A DNA stretch of 64,000 nucleotides, taken from an uncultured Acidobacteriota bacterium. Its GTDB lineage: Bacteria; Acidobacteriota; Terriglobia; Acidiferrales; UBA7541. The stretch covers positions 72,934 to 136,933 of the forward strand of contig CAVUGO010000006.1 in assembly GCA_963741045.1 (NCBI GenBank), in the 5' to 3' direction. A program made the position numbers and the translations under genes. Under the pieces are notes generated by a model. It was not told the DNA's origin and made no database searches. It was given only the letters and a program-made list of their open reading frames with translations. Positions 25,056-38,316 of the stretch are shown here, one piece after another. Numbering within the stretch: the stretch's first letter is position 1; every line of letters begins with the position of its first letter.

Positions 25056-26093
25056 CTATTGAGGACCACGCGAGCGCCGGCCTACGTCAATGGCCTGCGA
25101 AGCAGCAGCCGGCTGCAATTTTGCGCCCGTGGAAGAGCCGAACGTGATCGCATCGCGCGTCTTTGCAAACGGCGCTGAGTCGACGAACTTCACCGTGTCG
25201 CCTTCGCGCTCGACTCCGAGTTCTTTCCACAATGCATCGAGATCCACCGGATAAGGCTGATTTTTCATTTTCTGATAAAGCGGCATGAGAACAGAAACTC
25301 CGGTAGCCGCGTCGCCGGCCGTAAGAGCTTTCTCGATTGGCCAATCGTAGCGGATCTCCCCGCCGGCGTTCAGAATTCCGCGCAACGCGTCGTCGAGTCC
25401 CTTGTGATTATTCGTCTGTTTGTGAATTTCGACGTCCGCGAGGAAGCAGAAAAGGGCGCCGCCCCAGTACGTTCGGCCCCAAGTATGGGTGTGATCCAGC
25501 CCTTCGTCGCCGGGCTGCGGCAATCCTTGATGCAAATCGCGCACCAACTCGAACCACATTTCATGCGCATCCATGTTCTTGGCGCGCACGCGTGCAATCG
25601 GCTCTACATAGGTGGCGATTCCCTCTTCGATCCAATGGTGTTCGTCCGCCATCGAAGGGAACGAGAGGTGCACCATTTCGTGTGTCAGCATCCAGTCGGA
25701 GTTTAGCCCCCGCACCGTTGTCTCTCTGCCCACATGGATCGAAATGCGCCCGCCGTCTTTTGCGCCGAACGTTTGTCCCCCGCGCACACCTCGCCCGTCC
25801 GCCGGAATAATTCGAAGCGCCACTTCAGGGACAGGAAAGCGTTCGTAGTAGGTGGAGACGGAATCCGCCGCCATGCGCACCCACTGCATTAGCTCTTGAT
25901 TGGAGAGTTGCATCGGGCCGCTTTCGATATTCACGTCGATTCGCGACGAGCCAACCAGAATTGTGGATGTCATCTCATCTGCCGGGACGCGCAATGCGGG
26001 AACCAGAAGCAGAAGCAAGAATACCGGAATTAGAATTCGAAAGCTGCTACGCGAAGCACAATGAATCGCGGAAGTCCCAGAGCGTGTGGTCAT
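25056..26093 (-). CDS. Putative secreted gluzincin metallopeptidase (HEXXH + WIEEG)
   Basis: N-terminal hydrophobic signal, then LTHEMVHLSFPSMADEHHWIEEGIATYVE (HEXXH plus a downstream Glu in an EG context). Lies 90 nt downstream of, and co-directional with, the DoxX gene. Confidence 0.55.
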   Translation of the reverse strand: MTTRSGTSAIHCASRSSFRILIPVFLLLLLVPALRVPADEMTSTILVGSSRIDVNIESGPMQLSNQELMQWVRMAADSVSTYYERFPVPEVALRIIPADGRGVRGGQTFGAKDGGRISIHVGRETTVRGLNSDWMLTHEMVHLSFPSMADEHHWIEEGIATYVEPIARVRAKNMDAHEMWFELVRDLHQGLPQPGDEGLDHTHTWGRTYWGGALFCFLADVEIHKQTNNHKGLDDALRGILNAGGEIRYDWPIEKALTAGDAATGVSVLMPLYQKMKNQPYPVDLDALWKELGVEREGDTVKFVDSAPFAKTRDAITFGSSTGAKLQPAAASQAIDVGRRSRGPQ

Positions 26094-26185
26094 CACTTAG
26101 TAGGATGCGATGAAAAGGCGTTTTGCTGGAAACAAATCAGAGGAGTATCGGAACTATTTGTGAGGTTAGCTGTTGTCAGCTGTTT

Positions 26186-26683
26186 TCAGATATTGACTCG
26201 GCCCCGATTCGCGTACTTTTTCTCGATCAGATAGTCGAGCGCGATCTTGCCGGGTCCGAAGATCAGGATCACCAAGGCGACGGCGAGGTAAATAAACGGG
26301 TCCGCATTGTAGAACTTGGACGGATCCGAAATAAAAGCGGTAAGCGAATCGCGGTCGGATGTCATGTAGGCAGTGAGCATGTCGATGACGAGGCCAAGTG
26401 CGGCTACGCGCGAAAGCAGGCCGATCGCCAGCAGAATCCCAGCTACGAACTCGAACGTGGAGACAAAACCGGCGGTGGCTCCCGGCTCCGGAATGCCGAG
26501 GCTTGCAAAGAACTGCGTGACGTGCGGGAGATTGTGAAGCTTGCCCCACCCGTTCAGCGCAATGCCAGCAGGCCAGAGGCCAAAGTAGACGCGGATACAT
26601 AGCAGGAGCGCCGACTGCAAGCTGGAAGCCACTCGGACCAGCAAGCCGTACAGGTTTTGGATTTGTTCCCGCAGGCCGCTCAT
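26186..26683 (-). CDS. bufD: DoxX-family membrane protein (BufD-like)
   Basis: Four TM helices with DoxX-like sequence (RVYFGLWPAGIALNGWGKL..., GLLSRVAALGLVIDMLTAY). ATG 26683 overlaps the upstream stop as ATGA. Confidence 0.7.
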   Translation of the reverse strand: MSGLREQIQNLYGLLVRVASSLQSALLLCIRVYFGLWPAGIALNGWGKLHNLPHVTQFFASLGIPEPGATAGFVSTFEFVAGILLAIGLLSRVAALGLVIDMLTAYMTSDRDSLTAFISDPSKFYNADPFIYLAVALVILIFGPGKIALDYLIEKKYANRGRVNI

Positions 26684-27576
26684 CTCTTTTTCGCCGCCAT
26701 GGAGCGGCAGAACCAGCCCAGAGTAGACCAAGTCTGGAACCAGCTCTGAATTTGCGCGGGCCTCTCTTCCGGCGCGATCGAACTCTTGCGCAGAGCGGAG
26801 GCAATGGCCCGGCTTAGCGTCTTGCCCGCGCGCAGTTCCTTCAGGATCAGGAATTCTTCGCGCTCGAGGCGCCGGAAGTACACGGAATCATCGAGGCGGT
26901 GCACGGCAAGAAAAATCGTCGAAGGCTTCAGCCGGGCGACCGCGCGCACGCGCTTCTGCTTGTGCCGCTCATTGAAAGCGTTGCTCGCGAAATCCGTGTC
27001 CGCTTCGTGTTTCTTCAATTCAATCAGAAGGTCATCCACAGGATAGTGCAAATCGAGAAGATGAATGTAAGGCTGCAACTGCAAGCGCAGCGTCTCCGGA
27101 TCAGCTCCCGCGAGATCTTCAGGTTTCAAAGCGGGTTCTGCCTTTCCGTCGAAAGCGTCAATATCGGCCCATTCCAGCCGGACCATGTCGAGTGCCAGCT
27201 CTCGTCGCGAGCTAGTCCATTTCGGATTCTTGCGCAGCCACGTTTCCAATTTTGACCCGAGGTTTCGCAGCGTGAACGAAGTCGAGGGGCAATCGTTGAT
27301 GTAAGCCTTCGCGGCTGCATCGAATTTGCGTTCGCCAAGCACGGCGCGAAGACCTGGAAAATCCTCCGCAAACGCGGAAAGCACTCGAAACCAATATTGG
27401 CGGTTGTAGATTTCCAGGCGCTCAAACGAAGTGAGCCGATCGTTCGGCTTGATGATGTCCGCAGCGACCTTCCGCAGCGACCGGCCGTCAGGCGCCGTCG
27501 GGCGCATGCGCTCGGCGGGAGTGAGAGGCGTCATCACCGCCCGCGCCATACGGCGCTGGATGCTTAGAAGACTCAT
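26680..27576 (-). CDS. bufC: DUF2063-family MNIO partner protein (BufC/MbnC-like)
   Basis: LEIYNRQYWFRVLSAFAEDFPGLRAVLGERKFDAAAKAYINDCPSTSFTLRNLG is the typical DUF2063 N-terminal domain. There are ATGA overlaps at both ends of the gene. Confidence 0.75.
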   Translation of the reverse strand: MSLLSIQRRMARAVMTPLTPAERMRPTAPDGRSLRKVAADIIKPNDRLTSFERLEIYNRQYWFRVLSAFAEDFPGLRAVLGERKFDAAAKAYINDCPSTSFTLRNLGSKLETWLRKNPKWTSSRRELALDMVRLEWADIDAFDGKAEPALKPEDLAGADPETLRLQLQPYIHLLDLHYPVDDLLIELKKHEADTDFASNAFNERHKQKRVRAVARLKPSTIFLAVHRLDDSVYFRRLEREEFLILKELRAGKTLSRAIASALRKSSIAPEERPAQIQSWFQTWSTLGWFCRSMAAKKR

Positions 27577-28424
27577 ACGGCGGTGGCGAGCGAGGCGCTC
27601 GCGAGAAACTTGTTGGCCTTCAGCGCCTCATCATGGACTTCCTGGAACGAAGGAATACTGTCGTCCCATTCGAGGAGCGTCGCCGTGTGGCCCACACGTT
27701 CAATGGCGCGCTCGTAAAGTTTCCATACCGGATCGATCACCGGATGATCGTGCGTATCGAGAATGTATTTCTTGAATTTTGAATGTCCGGCGATATGAAT
27801 CTGCGCCACGCGGTCGGCTGGAACGCTATTTACATATGTAAACGGATCGAAATTGTGGTTCTTCGAAGAAACGTAAATATTGTTCACATCGAGAAGAATC
27901 CCGCAATCCGCCCGCTCCACCACTTCATTTAAAAACTCCCACTCGGTCATTTCCGAAACGTGAAACTCGGCATAGCTGCTCACGTTTTCCACCACCACCG
28001 GTGTTTCAATAAAATCCCGCACCTCGCGAACTTTTTGCGCGGTGATACGTGCCGCTTCGAACGTGTAAGGCATCGGAAGCAGGTCGTGCGTATAGCGCCC
28101 ATCCACACTGCCCCAGCAAAGATGATCCGAAACCCACGGCGTTTTCGTCCGCTTCACCAATTCCTTCAATCGCCGTAAATGTTCGCGGTTCGGCTTTTCC
28201 GCCGAGCCGAAATACATCGAAACGCCATGCTGCACCACGCGATACTGCTCGAGAATTTGATCGAGAATCCGCAACGGCCGGCCGCCGTCAATCATGAAAT
28301 TTTCAGAGATGATTTCGAACCAGTCCACCACCGGTTTCTTGGTAAGAATATGGTGGTAGTGCGGGGCGCGCAGCCCGATTCCCACTCCGTAATCCGTGAA
28401 TCCGTTGAACCGATTTGCAGGCAT
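27573..28424 (-). CDS. bufB: DUF692/UPF0276 multinuclear non-haem iron oxidase (MNIO; BufB/MbnB-like)
   Basis: Signature blocks GIGLRAPHY, EIISENF, HGVSMYFGS, SDHLCW, VENVSSY, LLDVNNIYV and IHIAGH. The start is ATG 28424, or TTG 28436 as in the ORF track. Confidence 0.85.
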   Translation of the reverse strand: MPANRFNGFTDYGVGIGLRAPHYHHILTKKPVVDWFEIISENFMIDGGRPLRILDQILEQYRVVQHGVSMYFGSAEKPNREHLRRLKELVKRTKTPWVSDHLCWGSVDGRYTHDLLPMPYTFEAARITAQKVREVRDFIETPVVVENVSSYAEFHVSEMTEWEFLNEVVERADCGILLDVNNIYVSSKNHNFDPFTYVNSVPADRVAQIHIAGHSKFKKYILDTHDHPVIDPVWKLYERAIERVGHTATLLEWDDSIPSFQEVHDEALKANKFLASASLATAV

Positions 28425-28464
28425 TGAATTCCCCAAATCTACAAAACAAAGTCTAGATAGAAAG

Positions 28465-28492
28465 AGGGCCGGAGAATTCTTGCCGGCCCTCC
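28465..28492 (-). terminator. GC-rich hairpin between precursor gene and MNIO gene (putative attenuator or partial terminator)
   Basis: gagggccgg-N10-ccggccctc, a perfect 9-bp stem. On the minus-strand transcript it is followed by tttctatctagactttgttttg (T-rich but interrupted). Confidence 0.45.
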
Positions 28493-28524
28493 GTCAGGTA
28501 ACGCGGTATTGCTTCAGCGGGTCA

Positions 28525-28812
28525 CTACGACGGCTTCTTCGAGCCGTCAGTTGCGCAGCCGCCCTTGCCCTTGCAAGAGTTCTTGCCTTTGCAACCGTTG
28601 TCGCCCGCTTTGCAACCGCCCTTGCCCTTACAGGAGTTCTGGCCTTTACAGGCGTGCTTTTCCTTCACCTTTTTGTCGCCCGAATCCTGAGCACTGAAGG
28701 TGTTGCCCTTCGCGCTCGAGAGAAGGTTCGACGCTTGCACGGTGACCGCAGTCCCGGCCAACAAACCAGCCAGCGCTGCTCCTGCTATCAAGCTCTTCTT
28801 AGACTTTGTCAT
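28525..28812 (-). CDS. bufA: RiPP precursor 1: Sec-signal peptide + six-Cys Lys/Gly-rich core (bufferin 6/12-Cys-like)
   Basis: Trimmed to ATG 28812, preceded by AGGAGG. Sequence MTKSKKSLIAGAALAGLLAGTAVTVQA|SNLLSSAKGNTFSAQDSGDKKVKEKHACKGQNSCKGKGGCKAGDNGCKGKNSCKGKGGCATDGSKKPS. Located immediately upstream of DUF692. Confidence 0.8.
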   Translation of the reverse strand: MTKSKKSLIAGAALAGLLAGTAVTVQASNLLSSAKGNTFSAQDSGDKKVKEKHACKGQNSCKGKGGCKAGDNGCKGKNSCKGKGGCATDGSKKPS

Positions 28813-28950
28813 GTTTCCACATCCTCCTGTCGATTTGGACTGCAACCGCCCTGATGCTAGTACGTCGCCCCAATGCATTTGGATTGGCCTTCTGGTTGGT
28901 CGAGACTGGGTTCGTTCCAAGCCTCTCGCACGGCGCGAGAAGCTGCCGGG

Positions 28951-28979
28951 AGCATAATCCAGGCAGTTACCGAGAACAA
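28951..28979 (-). promoter_or_regulatory. Putative sigma70-type promoter of precursor 1
   Basis: Minus strand reads TTGTTC (28979-28974), a 17-nt spacer, then TATGCT (28956-28951). Homology with the second copy ends just upstream of it. Confidence 0.4.
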
Positions 28980-29134
28980 CAGCTAATGCACCGGGTGCCG
29001 GAGGATGCCAGCGCAGAACGCTGCTCTCCGCTCTGACCGAGCGTCCAGACTGCTCGGCGGATACCACTCACAACTTCCCGCCGAGGGGCTGGGTTTCGCT
29101 CGGCGTATTTCCGGAAGGGTTTGATCCGACGCTA

Positions 29135-29419
29135 TTAGCCGGGCATCTTGGAGCCGTCAGTTGCGCAGCCCCCTTTGCCCTTGCACGAGTTCTTGCCCTT
29201 GCAGCCATTGTCACTCGACTTGCAGCCGCCCTTGCCTTTACAGGAATTCTGGCCTTTACAAGCGTGCTTTTCCTTCACCTTGGAATCGTCTTTCTGCGTG
29301 CTGAAGGTGTTGCCCTTCGCGCTCGACAGCGGATTGGACGCCTGAACCGTTACAGCAGTCCCGGCCAACAAACCAGCCAGCGCTGCTCCCGCTATCAAGC
29401 TCTTTTTGGACTTTGTCAT
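29135..29419 (-). CDS. bufA: RiPP precursor 2: paralogue of precursor 1
   Basis: Trimmed to ATG 29419, preceded by GGAGG. Sequence MTKSKKSLIAGAALAGLLAGTAVTVQA|SNPLSSAKGNTFSTQKDDSKVKEKHACKGQNSCKGKGGCKSSDNGCKGKNSCKGKGGCATDGSKMPG. All six Cys are conserved. Confidence 0.8.
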   Translation of the reverse strand: MTKSKKSLIAGAALAGLLAGTAVTVQASNPLSSAKGNTFSTQKDDSKVKEKHACKGQNSCKGKGGCKSSDNGCKGKNSCKGKGGCATDGSKMPG

Positions 29420-29553
29420 GTCTCTACCTCCGATAGATTTGGACTGCAACCGCCTGAAGCTAGTACGTCGTCCCAATGGTTTCGGTTTGGCTTACTGGTT
29501 GTTGAGACTGGGTTCGTTCCAAGCCCCGCGCACGGCGCGAGAAGCTGGCGGGG

Positions 29554-29583
29554 AGCATAATCCAGTTAGCAGGTCTGTAACAA
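29554..29583 (-). promoter_or_regulatory. Putative sigma70-type promoter of precursor 2
   Basis: Minus strand reads TTGTTA (29583-29578), an 18-nt spacer, then TATGCT (29559-29554). Confidence 0.4.
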
Positions 29584-29666
29584 TAGGTAAAGCACCGCAT
29601 GGCCGAGTACCAGACCAGCATAGAACTCGGTCGGCCGCAATCGCCGGCTTTTCGGGTCAGTATTGT

Positions 29667-30635
29667 TCAGGTCGCAGGCCAGGTCTGATTCAGAATCATC
29701 GCCAGGCGGAAGCCTGCCTTCGCGAGTTGCTCTTCGATGGTACGAGTTACGAAGGACTGATACGTCGGCCCCACCTTTTCCCTCAGCTTAAGCATTCTCT
29801 CGGCGATCTCGTCCGCATCGGCGCAGGTGCTCACGGGCTCGGGAGTTTCCACCGGGATCTTTCGATTCAGTGCTCCGTACGTCGCTTGTTCGGCCGCCTC
29901 GTGGCTTTCCCAGGCCCAATTATCAAAGTTGACGCCCTCCTCTTTCCACGTCGCGAATTGAGGCTTGAACCTCTTCTCGATAGTGGCGGCGAACTGCTCG
30001 ACGGTCTCGCCACCAGCGATGCGCTCGACGAGCTGTGTGTCCCAAACTCCGTGAAGATTCAATTGGTAGGTCTTAGTGATCTGATCGGTCTCCAGCGGCT
30101 TTTGGCCGAAGTACGTGACCGGGACGCAGTTCCCGCCGCGGTCGTTGTTCGTTGTGCAGTGCAGCGGCTGATGAATGTCCCCCGCGAAATGGATGATGAA
30201 CCGCAGCGCATTCGCTCGAGCAGTCGGATTGCTAGCCGGATCCTGAAGAATCTTCACCTGCTCGGCGAGAGCAAGCGTGATGCAGCTTTGCGTCGCGTCG
30301 CAAGTGAAGCTCCCCTTCTTGGATCCGCGAGGGATGTCAATGAAATGCCAGCCGGCGGTTTCGGGATGGGCTTTGCGGTAATCGTCGGCCCACGTTGCGG
30401 CGTCTTCCATTGGATCGGTTGCGATTGGCTTGCAGAAGCGGTCGAGCGTCGGGTCGACAGGATTGTCAGTGAGAATCTGATTCACCATCGCCAGCGCGTG
30501 AGGATTCAGGTTCTGCTTGGCGATGAGGGCGACCGTTTGATGGCCTTCGCAACCCCATGCGAGCGAGCGAGGGCAATGCAACAGAACAGAACCGAATACG
30601 AGAGCGACGAGAGTTGCGAAGCGAGCCCGATTCAG
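29667..30635 (-). CDS. Secreted S1/P1-family zinc nuclease
   Basis: Blocks WGCEGHQTVALIA, WHFIDIP, HFAGDIHQPLH and NLHGVWD. The ORF track starts at TTG 30581. I extend to in-frame CTG 30635 to recover a signal peptide (see findings). Confidence 0.8.
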   Translation of the reverse strand: MNRARFATLVALVFGSVLLHCPRSLAWGCEGHQTVALIAKQNLNPHALAMVNQILTDNPVDPTLDRFCKPIATDPMEDAATWADDYRKAHPETAGWHFIDIPRGSKKGSFTCDATQSCITLALAEQVKILQDPASNPTARANALRFIIHFAGDIHQPLHCTTNNDRGGNCVPVTYFGQKPLETDQITKTYQLNLHGVWDTQLVERIAGGETVEQFAATIEKRFKPQFATWKEEGVNFDNWAWESHEAAEQATYGALNRKIPVETPEPVSTCADADEIAERMLKLREKVGPTYQSFVTRTIEEQLAKAGFRLAMILNQTWPAT

Positions 30636-30935
30636 GTTAGCACCTCAGTTTGAATGCCCCAGTTGAGAACACAATGCCTCGCCATGAATTCTATTCGGTC
30701 GAGCGCGCGGAAAATAGCCTTCATTTGCGGCGAATCATCATAGATGCAGACTCTTGCCTTGGTGTCAGTCGCGGTGTCTGAAAACCCGGTTTTTCCGTGT
30801 ACGTGACGCGGTGCTTTTGGCGCGAGAAATCTACGCTGCCGACAGGCAATTCCCGCCAAGTATCGCGTTCGGGCACGGCCCTCCTGCGGCGGGTCCCAGA
30901 CATGCCGTGCCCCTACTGAAACCCCCGCCTTGCTG

Positions 30936-31436
30936 CTAATCCCAGGCGCCTAGGACGCGGCGTAGGAGAACTAGTTCGCCGATGTGATAGGCGTTGTGGT
31001 CGGCTGCTAGCAGTGCCTGGCGGAGAATCGTCTGGCCGTCGCCGTGGGAGATTTTCGCGAATAGGTCGGTGGATTCGTTGTTTATTAGATCGCAGAGAGC
31101 TTTGCGATCGGCCTGAAATGCGGCGGCGCTTTTCTCCCAGGCTTTTGCGTCAGGGGGTTCGGGCGATTTCGGCCAATAGCCCTCCGGGAATTCAGGCGAT
31201 TTGTGTTTGGCGTTGCGCGCGAATTCGAGAATATCCCATTGCGCGATGCGCAAGTGTTCGAGCATTTCCCACGGTGAGTGCGCCGCACCCTTCGGTCGTT
31301 TGCCTTGCAGATCAGCGGGCAGATCTTTCACGGCGGTTTCAAAATTCGCGTGGGCTTCGCTGTCGCTGAGGAGCTTCACGAGTTGTTCGCGGAGTGCTTT
31401 GTCCTGGTTGGTGCTGGTTGCCGTTGCGGTGGTCAT
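30936..31436 (-). CDS. DinB-family protein
   Basis: Trimmed to the SD-preceded ATG 31436. Contains HLRIAQWDILEFA and AADHNAYHIGELVLLRRVLG, the DinB/DinB_2 four-helix His motifs. Confidence 0.7.
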   Translation of the reverse strand: MTTATATSTNQDKALREQLVKLLSDSEAHANFETAVKDLPADLQGKRPKGAAHSPWEMLEHLRIAQWDILEFARNAKHKSPEFPEGYWPKSPEPPDAKAWEKSAAAFQADRKALCDLINNESTDLFAKISHGDGQTILRQALLAADHNAYHIGELVLLRRVLGAWD

Positions 31437-31548
31437 GTTTGTTCCTCCCTTTTTTCGATTGGATGATGGTGTCTTTCGATTCGATTGAACGAATTTCAGC
31501 GCCCTGGGCGACAGGAGGGCCGTGCCTCTACTGTCGAAACTCCTCGCG

Positions 31549-32097
31549 TTATTGCATGCGCTGGCAGCGGAATTCGCCCTCGAGTTTCCAGGTGGCACCA
31601 TCTGGATTCAGCGATTCGCCGATCCAGTGGAATGAGTTGGGCGTGATTTCGGTGAATCGCCAGCGCGTCGGCGTGCCGTCCATGCGTGCGCCGACCTGCA
31701 CGATTTCATTTCCGATGCGGCGGCCAGTTTGTTGTTCGTAATGATTCGTCACGGGATTGATCCAGCGGATGCGCCAGGCCTGGATGGACGCGTCCCAGAT
31801 GCGGAGGGTGGTGCCGTACATGTTGTTCGTTTTGGCGAGATTGGCATTGCGGTCCGATACCCGCGGCATGATCCAGACGTCTTGAATGGCGCGGCCTTCA
31901 AGCACCCAGCCGAAATGGACTTCGCCTTGGATGTGCAGCGGCGCGACGTCAGTGGCTGCGTAATGCAAGACCTCTAGATCCCAGCTGCCTACGAGCCACC
32001 CGTATACGTCGCTCTCTTCGGGAATTTCGGGCGATCTTCCGAGAGCTGCCAGAAGGCTGTAGAAATCGTGCTTCTGTGTTGCTGCACTTGCGGTCAT
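31549..32097 (-). CDS. Hypothetical protein (182 aa)
   Basis: Trimmed to the GAGGAGG-preceded ATG 32097. The 370-aa form in the ORF track has an Arg/Pro-rich N-terminus that is antisense to the AraC gene. Confidence 0.5.
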   Translation of the reverse strand: MTASAATQKHDFYSLLAALGRSPEIPEESDVYGWLVGSWDLEVLHYAATDVAPLHIQGEVHFGWVLEGRAIQDVWIMPRVSDRNANLAKTNNMYGTTLRIWDASIQAWRIRWINPVTNHYEQQTGRRIGNEIVQVGARMDGTPTRWRFTEITPNSFHWIGESLNPDGATWKLEGEFRCQRMQ

Positions 32098-38144: not shown

Positions 38145-38316
38145 AAAAGAAAAGGGAGTACGAACCGCCTCTGGCGGTTACGGCTCTCCACTCGGTCTAA
38201 CTGACCGGGCGTTCGGTTCTCAGCCGAACGGGTTCTGGCAAGTCTCATCCGATCTCCCCTTTGGCCGCGCGAGCGGTTTGAAGGGCTGTTAAAGAGCAAT
38301 CAGACAAACGCGAGAA

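Follow-up and report, generated by a model that had tools for sequence, protein, structure and literature searches.

Two adjacent bufferin precursor genes in an uncultured Acidobacteriota bacterium are each preceded by a copy of the same long leader, which is a candidate new regulatory RNA. The genes (bufA2-type copies A and B) lie on the minus strand of a 64,000-nucleotide stretch of contig CAVUGO010000006.1 (hereafter, the window). Judged by comparison with relatives, this leader, which we call the type-A leader, is real, is maintained by selection, and represents a family of bufferin-precursor leaders that had not been described before. Each precursor gene looks like a sigma70-type transcription unit of its own, with a predicted start about 130-135 nucleotides (nt) before the ATG.

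Bufferins are a recently recognised and very widespread family of copper-buffering peptides. To our knowledge, the sole known control of bufferin genes is a pair of an extracytoplasmic function (ECF) sigma factor and its anti-sigma factor in Caulobacter. The genes studied here have a different control region in front of them: a promoter of the housekeeping type and a long leader that is gene-specific, maintained by selection, and without a counterpart in Rfam. Should this leader turn out to regulate expression, it would represent a second, possibly RNA-based way to tune a metal-defence peptide, and would offer a defined motif open to reporter testing.

By protein family comparison, the locus of two precursor genes, the gene for BufB, and the gene for a DUF2063/HvfC-like partner is of the bufferin type, because the BufB match (350 bits) exceeds its cut-off and the precursors match BufA2 (E 6e-10), though under the cut-off of that model. 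In the translations of the open reading frames (ORFs), both precursor copies have a Sec-type signal peptide and six Cys residues.

The duplicated unit comprises the promoter, the leader, and the coding sequence as a whole. When the minus-strand upstream regions of copies A and B were aligned, about 165 nt upstream of the ATG were common to both. Across the unit, the A/B identity per 100 alignment columns was 44, 56, 82, 84, 81, 85, 66, and 43%; that is, the identity climbs at the promoter and drops to noise past the stop codons. A preliminary description of the window, made from the sequence, had reported this upstream duplication with five identical runs, and all five were found in both copies. 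The promoter-like hexamers that it had noted, TTGTTC-17-TATGCT in copy A and TTGTTA-18-TATGCT in copy B, are read at the spacing given there. The loss of similarity that it had described after the stop codons is seen in the final 43%, and the amino-acid differences between the copies, said to avoid Cys, spare all six of these residues. Its claim that the similarity ends abruptly at the -35 needs correction: weaker, recognisable similarity runs about 50 nt further upstream.

Among the nucleotide differences between the two copies in aligned codons, 33 of 45 are at third positions. A BLAST search of the bacterium's own 5.67-Mb genome gave two occurrences only of the leader, those of copies A and B. 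The single-copy leaders of close relatives are 95-97% identical to that of copy A and 88-91% identical to that of copy B; the upstream flank and promoter spacer of these relatives are kept in copy B, and their downstream context is kept in copy A. This arrangement fits a history in which one ancestral unit was duplicated in tandem and copy B then changed faster. The amino-acid patterns of the precursors form a mosaic among relatives and are compatible with more than one duplication history.

Precursor homologues were found in 36 of 201 genomes sampled from the family and in 68 of 301 sampled from the class. Upstream regions were gathered from the genomes with precursor homologues and from genome and metagenome contigs (Candidatus Acidoferrales-like). 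Using nhmmer, we obtained 33 full-length type-A leaders (E <= 5.6e-23), each directly upstream of bufA2. Thirty of them are distinct, and these orthologues bear out the conservation in relatives that the preliminary description had named as a check.

Conservation among the 30 leaders begins at the promoter. The -10 hexamer TATGCT is invariant in all 30, and TTGTnn is located 17-18 nt upstream of it with A/T-rich sequence before TTGTnn; the promoter spacer and the sequence further upstream vary. The support for the promoter comes from this conservation of the hexamers in orthologues, and not from the quality of their match. Both hexamers are also retained in copy A although its spacer has diverged from that of copy B in sequence and in length, which argues that copy A uses its own promoter.

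The leader is better conserved than neighbouring synonymous positions. Between copies A and B, the four-fold sites agree at 26 of 41 positions (63%), versus 128 of 155 leader columns (Fisher p = 0.011), or 128 of 145 without the gapped columns. Between copy A and the orthologue L017, the leader is 62% identical and the four-fold sites are 27% identical (saturated). For 378 orthologue pairs, at a four-fold identity of 0.30, which is saturated, the identity of the leader was 0.61, and that of a control region 200-300 nt upstream was 0.46. Because leader identity exceeds four-fold-site identity, the leader appears to be under selection and not merely part of a young duplicate. Purifying selection on the leader is shown, at the level of sequence comparison, for copies A and B alike and for about 30 distinct leaders of orthologues.

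The leader also seems to be confined to one kind of gene. We ran a covariance model of the type-A leader (R2) against 150 whole genomes from the family, and its matches end at bufA2 starts: two each in the bacterium's own genome (G000) and in G062, and one each in G052, G110, G119, and G046. One extra match (L353, G069:C5:1085135-1085271; E 0.005 per genome) before the gene of a secreted fasciclin-domain protein is probably due to chance, given that 150 genomes were searched. All 11 confirmed pattern matches in Acidobacteriota precede bufA2 ORFs. A genome-wide search with the short pattern of block B4 (see below) was discarded, as it gave mostly chance matches in unrelated phyla. Since the strong R2 matches and the nhmmer and BLAST matches are at bufA2 only, the leader is taken to be gene-specific. 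No conserved regulator gene was seen beside the leader loci, whose neighbours are of several kinds (nuclease, sulfite or nitrite reductase, tRNA). In L017, a tRNA gene (1141-1211) is directly upstream of the type-A promoter, and L155, L202, L211, and L214 have divergent genes for sulfite/nitrite reductase and siroheme synthesis upstream; thus, the neighbourhood upstream of the promoter is not conserved.

The positions of the leader parts in the window are given in Table 1. In all 30 leaders, a hairpin (P1) is found right after the predicted start and ends 2-3 nt before a conserved block, B1. The P1 stems differ among the leaders, for example CUUCUCGC/GCGAGAGG, CCCCGG/CCGGGG, and AAUCCGG/CCGGAUU. 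Block B1, 3' of P1, has the family form GCUUGGAACCAACCCAGUC and is followed by a central segment of 45-55 nt that is variable in sequence but steady in composition (A 36, C 37, G 12, and U 15%); the G content of the leader outside this segment is 32%. A second hairpin, P2, carries AAUCC(A)AA. Its stems vary and are thermodynamically strong in some lineages only, and the stems at this site in orthologues are unrelated (GCAAU/GUUGC, AUCCGA/UCGGAU, and CAGGGA/UCCCUG). Next comes block B3, with the family form ACGUAGUAG and often an A-R-N repeat, then block B4, GGUGCGGUUGMAGUCCAAA, and then GGAGG. B1 is complementary to B4 in two parts, UUGGA/UCCAA and AACC/GGUU. The count of zero A/B differences in B1, B3, and B4 is subject to after-the-fact selection of these blocks.

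Table 1. Predicted leader parts, promoters, and genes of the bufferin-type locus in the window
Feature	Position	Strand	Basis
Copy B predicted -35, TTGTTA	29578-29583	minus	TTGTnn kept at the same position in 30 orthologous leaders
Copy B predicted -10, TATGCT, 18-nt spacer	29554-29559	minus	invariant in 30 type-A leaders; under the consensus-scan threshold
Copy B predicted 5' leader, about 128 nt	29420-29547	minus	83-88% identity to leader A; R2 match E 5.7e-27
Copy B 5'-proximal hairpin P1	29523-29545	minus	counterpart in all 30 leaders; both-side changes in 3 of 6 pairs
Copy B block B1 (GGCUUGGAACGAACCCAGUCUC)	29504-29525	minus	same in A and B; almost invariant across the leader family
Copy B blocks B3 (CGACGUACUAGC) and B4 (GGCGGUUGCAGUCCAAAUC)	29436-29470	minus	same in A and B; conserved in orthologues
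Copy B ribosome-binding site GGAGG	29427-29431	minus	7-12 nt before ATG in nearly all homologues
bufA2-type precursor copy B	29135-29419	minus	94 aa; NF050166 (BufA2) E 6e-10, 39.2 bits, under the 60-bit cut-off
Copy A predicted -35, TTGTTC	28974-28979	minus	position conserved in orthologues
Copy A predicted -10, TATGCT, 17-nt spacer	28951-28956	minus	invariant in 30 leaders
Copy A predicted 5' leader, about 132 nt	28813-28944	minus	R2 match E 5.1e-30
Copy A 5'-proximal hairpin P1 (CUUCUCGC/GCGAGAGG)	28921-28943	minus	-16.5 kcal/mol, z = -2.1; covariation in the family
Copy A block B1	28902-28923	minus	A/B alignment and orthologues
Copy A hairpin P2 (CCAAU/AUUGG) with conserved AAUCCAAA	28870-28887	minus	orthologue hairpins at the same place
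Copy A blocks B3 and B4	28832-28867	minus	A/B alignment and orthologues
Copy A ribosome-binding site AGGAGG	28823-28828	minus	read from the sequence; homologues
bufA2-type precursor copy A	28525-28812	minus	95 aa; NF050166 (BufA2) E 5.8e-10, 39.2 bits, under the 60-bit cut-off
BufB (MNIO maturase), downstream of copy A	27573-28436	minus	NF050167, 350.3 bits, passing the 310-bit equivalog cut-off
DUF2063/HvfC-like partner (BufC-like), downstream	26680-27576	minus	NF050145 E 3.1e-12, 46.8 bits, under the 142-bit cut-off

Tests of RNA structure on the family alignment support P1 and give weak evidence of structure beyond it. For P1 and the long-range helices together, 86.6% of the cells are paired, versus 83.3% in shuffles and 17-58% with slid partners, and 6 pairs are changed on both sides versus 2.1 in shuffles (0/500). 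Most of the signal of double-sided changes comes from P1, and clear covariation is limited to it. Covariation had been put forward in the preliminary description as a check of the leader; it is clear in P1 only. The long-range helices are compatible with the alignment but nearly invariant, and RNAalifold returns no consensus fold. The internal loop of the B1:B4 helix takes the indels of L101 and L110 (single-nucleotide and 7-nt insertions). The GGUUG of B4 also has a local alternative partner, CRRC, just before GUAGUA.

On balance, we consider it somewhat more likely than not that copies A and B are two independent sigma70-type units in which the lineage-specific type-A bufA2 leader acts in cis, as RNA, on the precursor mRNA. 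We prefer RNA to DNA operators because of the strand-specific composition, the variable stems, the single kind of gene concerned, and the fact that no conserved neighbouring regulator was seen. The 5' hairpin P1 would protect a highly expressed short mRNA from 5'-end-dependent decay, and the G-poor, C/A-rich unstructured stretch, together with B1 and B4, would set the amount of full-length, translatable mRNA. The long-range B1:B4 helix (UUGGA/UCCAA and AACC/GGUU) would have its end some 10 nt ahead of the ribosome-binding site. The leader may act through early termination, possibly dependent on Rho, through processing, or through the access of ribosomes, and a trans-acting factor would probably take part. 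The G-poor, C-rich stretch is a possible loading site for Rho or another factor. The type-A leader would then substitute for the ECF sigma(F)-type promoter control of Caulobacter and, by motif, of sister lineages. We found no literature on bufferin leaders or riboswitches.

Several results weigh against this explanation. The promoter hexamers agree with the Escherichia coli consensus at no more than 7 of 12 positions, and a consensus scan called no promoter. The transcription start, placed about 7 nt after the -10, is a predicted one. The A/B differences are not depleted in the columns conserved in other clades (14/76 vs 11/63, p = 1). The C-over-G skew of the bacterium's own central segment is reached by 7% of the subwindows in the 64-kb sequence, and is only moderately unusual. 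The B1:B4 helices are almost invariant, and the covariation there comes from single sequences; the helix has a high pairing probability in 8 of the 30 leaders and one of about 0.05 in the window's own leaders. RNAalifold on the leader family gave essentially no consensus structure (-0.17 kcal/mol), the folds of single sequences do not exceed shuffles in stability (z = 0.33 and 0.04), and the ribosome-binding site is as accessible as in shuffled leaders (0.28 vs 0.27).

We rejected an evolved occlusion of the ribosome-binding site on account of this accessibility, and because the complementarities resembling an anti-Shine-Dalgarno sequence that can be picked out by eye occur at chance frequency. 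The leaders of L107, L101, L106, and L211 (AUUACCCUC, GGAGGUAAU) have an 8-9-nt segment of this kind that is complementary to the ribosome-binding site and the spacer. In this subgroup, the ribosome-binding site is predicted to be 98% paired, a property that is not general across the family. Other candidate functions were also excluded. A longer precursor N-terminus that would begin at an in-frame UUG upstream does not agree with the 1-nt indels between GGAGG and the ATG among close relatives, nor with the GGAGG-preceded ATGAC that is conserved in all homologues. A conserved small ORF in the leader, on either strand, is excluded by A/B indels whose lengths are not divisible by three. Stretches complementary to 16S rRNA, which might enhance translation, amount to chance 9-mers only, and a sigma54 or ECF promoter within B1 or B4 shows misfit spacing and no conserved partner element.

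With the covariance models of Rfam 15, nothing relevant was found in 26000-32000 of the window at E up to 10, and seven orthologous loci gave one tRNA and nothing else at E up to 1; the Rfam comparison suggested in the preliminary description thus yielded no family match in the window or in the orthologues. What that description had proposed overall is supported in part: the 30 orthologues speak for an independent transcription unit with a conserved leader of well over 100 nt; its further suggestion of a metal- or redox-responsive RNA element, or a platform for a repressor, is not established.

The conserved blocks might instead act as DNA, as operators downstream of the promoter for a metal-responsive repressor or activator, through a roadblock or through TTGGA/TCCAA looping. 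The primary sequence is far better conserved than the structure, and B1 and B4 hold inverted repeats of each other. Furthermore, there is no GTAACC motif near the genes and no NrsF in the genome, so another regulator may be needed. However, the half-sites do not form adjacent palindromes but are separated by about 85 bp, the strand-specific, C/A-rich and G-poor composition and the variable stems of P1 and P2 suggest RNA, no regulator gene is conserved beside the loci, and the motif is at no other gene of the genome. We regard operators of this kind as unlikely.

Another possibility is a ligand-sensing riboswitch, for copper or another metal, in which the GGUUG of B4 would switch between the distant AACC of B1 and the local CRRC, and would thereby release or sequester the A-rich stretch that immediately precedes the ribosome-binding site. 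The gene-specific element with conserved blocks between variable hairpins is of the expected kind, the long-range and local pairings of GGUUG are mutually exclusive, and Caulobacter bufferins respond to copper (PMC11626156). Both partners of U126/U127 are purines that vary between A and G only (AU 17, GU 13; GU 17, AU 9), a variation that is also expected from transition bias alone. The element has no Rfam relative and no consensus fold, its helices are so nearly invariant that there is no real covariation, and the ribosome-binding site is not preferentially occluded. We also know of no copper riboswitch that has been described. A riboswitch here seems quite unlikely to us, and its fullest version, with the type-A leader as a new riboswitch-like RNA that would directly sense copper or copper stress via the alternative pairing of GGUUG and replace ECF sigma control, seems very unlikely.

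If the start had been mis-assigned, the true promoter would be near the ATG, the blocks would be promoter, UP-element, or activator sites, and there would be no long leader. The weak hexamers (7/12), left uncalled by the scan, the start of a Caulobacter bufA2 homologue at -7 (PMC3511200), and the ECF-like motifs that lie as close as about 60-70 nt to the ATG in other families of the class would agree with this. On the other side, no -10/-35, sigma54, or ECF-like pair is conserved in B3/B4 across the type-A leaders and the type-B leaders of sister lineages (described below), and the strongly conserved GGAGG implies a transcribed leader that at least reaches it. TATGCT is the sole invariant hexamer with TTG 17-18 nt upstream and A/T-rich sequence before, and conservation begins there. 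A mis-assigned start is very unlikely. Finally, neutral similarity of leaders A and B, from recent duplication or gene conversion of a leader without function, for which one could cite the adjacent copies, the mosaic patterns among relatives that hint at recombination, and the A/B differences that are not depleted in columns conserved elsewhere, is extremely improbable and appears largely refuted already by the lower identity of four-fold sites in the neighbouring coding sequence (63% vs 83-88% in the leader), besides the leader being alignable at 61% where four-fold sites are saturated and the flanks falling to 44-46%.

A leader acting as RNA on the precursor mRNA, as we prefer, has partial parallels in known systems. 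The E. coli ompA leader is a long (about 130 nt) 5' untranslated region that stabilises the mRNA of an abundant secreted protein and has a stem-loop near its 5' end. The type-A leader is likewise about 130 nt long, with a stem-loop within a few nt of the predicted 5' end; in contrast, it has no sequence relation to ompA, its extra conserved blocks have no counterpart there, and a stabilising role is suggested here by position only. Among metal-related leaders, czcD/NiCo and yybP-ykoY are metal riboswitches, and the mgtA and corA leaders are Rho-dependent attenuators. The type-A leader resembles them in being a gene-specific long leader of a metal-homeostasis gene, with variable hairpins set among conserved blocks and a stretch rich in C and poor in G that is like a loading site for Rho, but differs in having no Rfam match (E up to 10) and no consensus fold.

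In Caulobacter, buf1 and buf2 are under SigF/NrsF control (PMC11626156), and their mapped starts are at -61 and -7 (PMC3511200). Like the locus in the window, they comprise a Cys-rich precursor with a Sec signal, the MNIO protein BufB, and a DUF2063 partner (in the window, an HvfC-family match under its cut-off), with the precursor as the first gene and the control point; unlike them, the window has a sigma70-like promoter and a predicted leader of about 130 nt. The only match of the sigma(F) motif GTAACC-N12-18-CGWA in the window, at 38159, is at chance level, and the surroundings of the genes have none. NrsF (PF06532) was not found in the bacterium's own 98%-complete genome, and it is present in one of five relatives with ECF-like bufA2 promoters.

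Sister genera of the family also have long upstream regions, with an ECF-type TGTAACC...CGAATC, resembling the Caulobacter sigma(F) -35, or CCGTCTAA. The spacing from TGTAACC to CGAA is 13 and not 16, so membership of the sigma(F) class is not established. The motif, as TGTAACC-N13-CGAATC or (A/T)TCACC-N16-GTCTAA, was seen in L020, L022, L024, L026, L027, L030, L031, L033, and L035-L037, about 170-250 nt before the precursor ATG. In L027, L030, and L033, a sigma70-like TTGAGA-17-TATACT directly follows it, which suggests dual promoters at these loci.

Many sister-lineage loci have a different leader, type B, for which we defined a covariance model (R1) in this analysis. It consists of a hairpin that is closed by CUUC...GAAG and covaries in its inner pairs; GCAGU and an A/U-rich tract follow ahead of GGAGG. 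In the hairpin, 84% of the cells are paired, and 27 cells are changed on both sides versus 12.5 in shuffles. The element was found in 73 distinct sister-lineage loci (e.g., L024 1426-1491 and L028 1795-1854) and is not in Rfam. R1 matched 41 sister loci at E <= 5.3e-5 and gave no match in the window at E up to 1. Both types lie upstream of orthologous precursors in the same family and have a purine-rich run, GCAGU, and an A/U-rich tract before GGAGG; they differ in the covarying CUUC/GAAG hairpin and the mostly ECF-like promoters of type B. Within the genus g1, the precursors have three promoter/leader types (G000, G052, G110, and G119; G198, with L019; and G177, with L021), and the control region seems to have been exchanged as a module within this genus.

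One orthologous locus, L213 (CAVOOU010000013.1), has an intact type-A leader before a precursor, MTKSKK...TQDGRQQGEGKARL, that stops at 54 aa; judging from its sequence, this is a frameshifted or mis-assembled copy.

Tandem precursor genes have been reported for bufferin clusters (PMC12452194). In the window, the scan found no terminator between copies B and A, so read-through from B into A is possible. The terminator scan was limited to loops of up to 8 nt, and a hairpin with a 10-nt loop was therefore beyond its reach. This hairpin is located between the copy A stop codon and bufB (28465-28492, minus strand); it has a 9-bp GC stem (GAGGGCCGG...CCGGCCCUC), followed by UUUCUAUCU, a T-rich tract, and looks like an attenuator between the precursor and maturase genes. 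The arrangement of tandem copies, and of a GC hairpin and T-rich tract before bufB, is similar to operons for RiPPs (peptides ribosomally synthesized and then modified after translation) that have tandem precursors and an attenuating hairpin before the maturase gene. It differs from them in that copy A, behind copy B, has its own conserved predicted promoter and full leader in place of plain co-transcription behind copy B.

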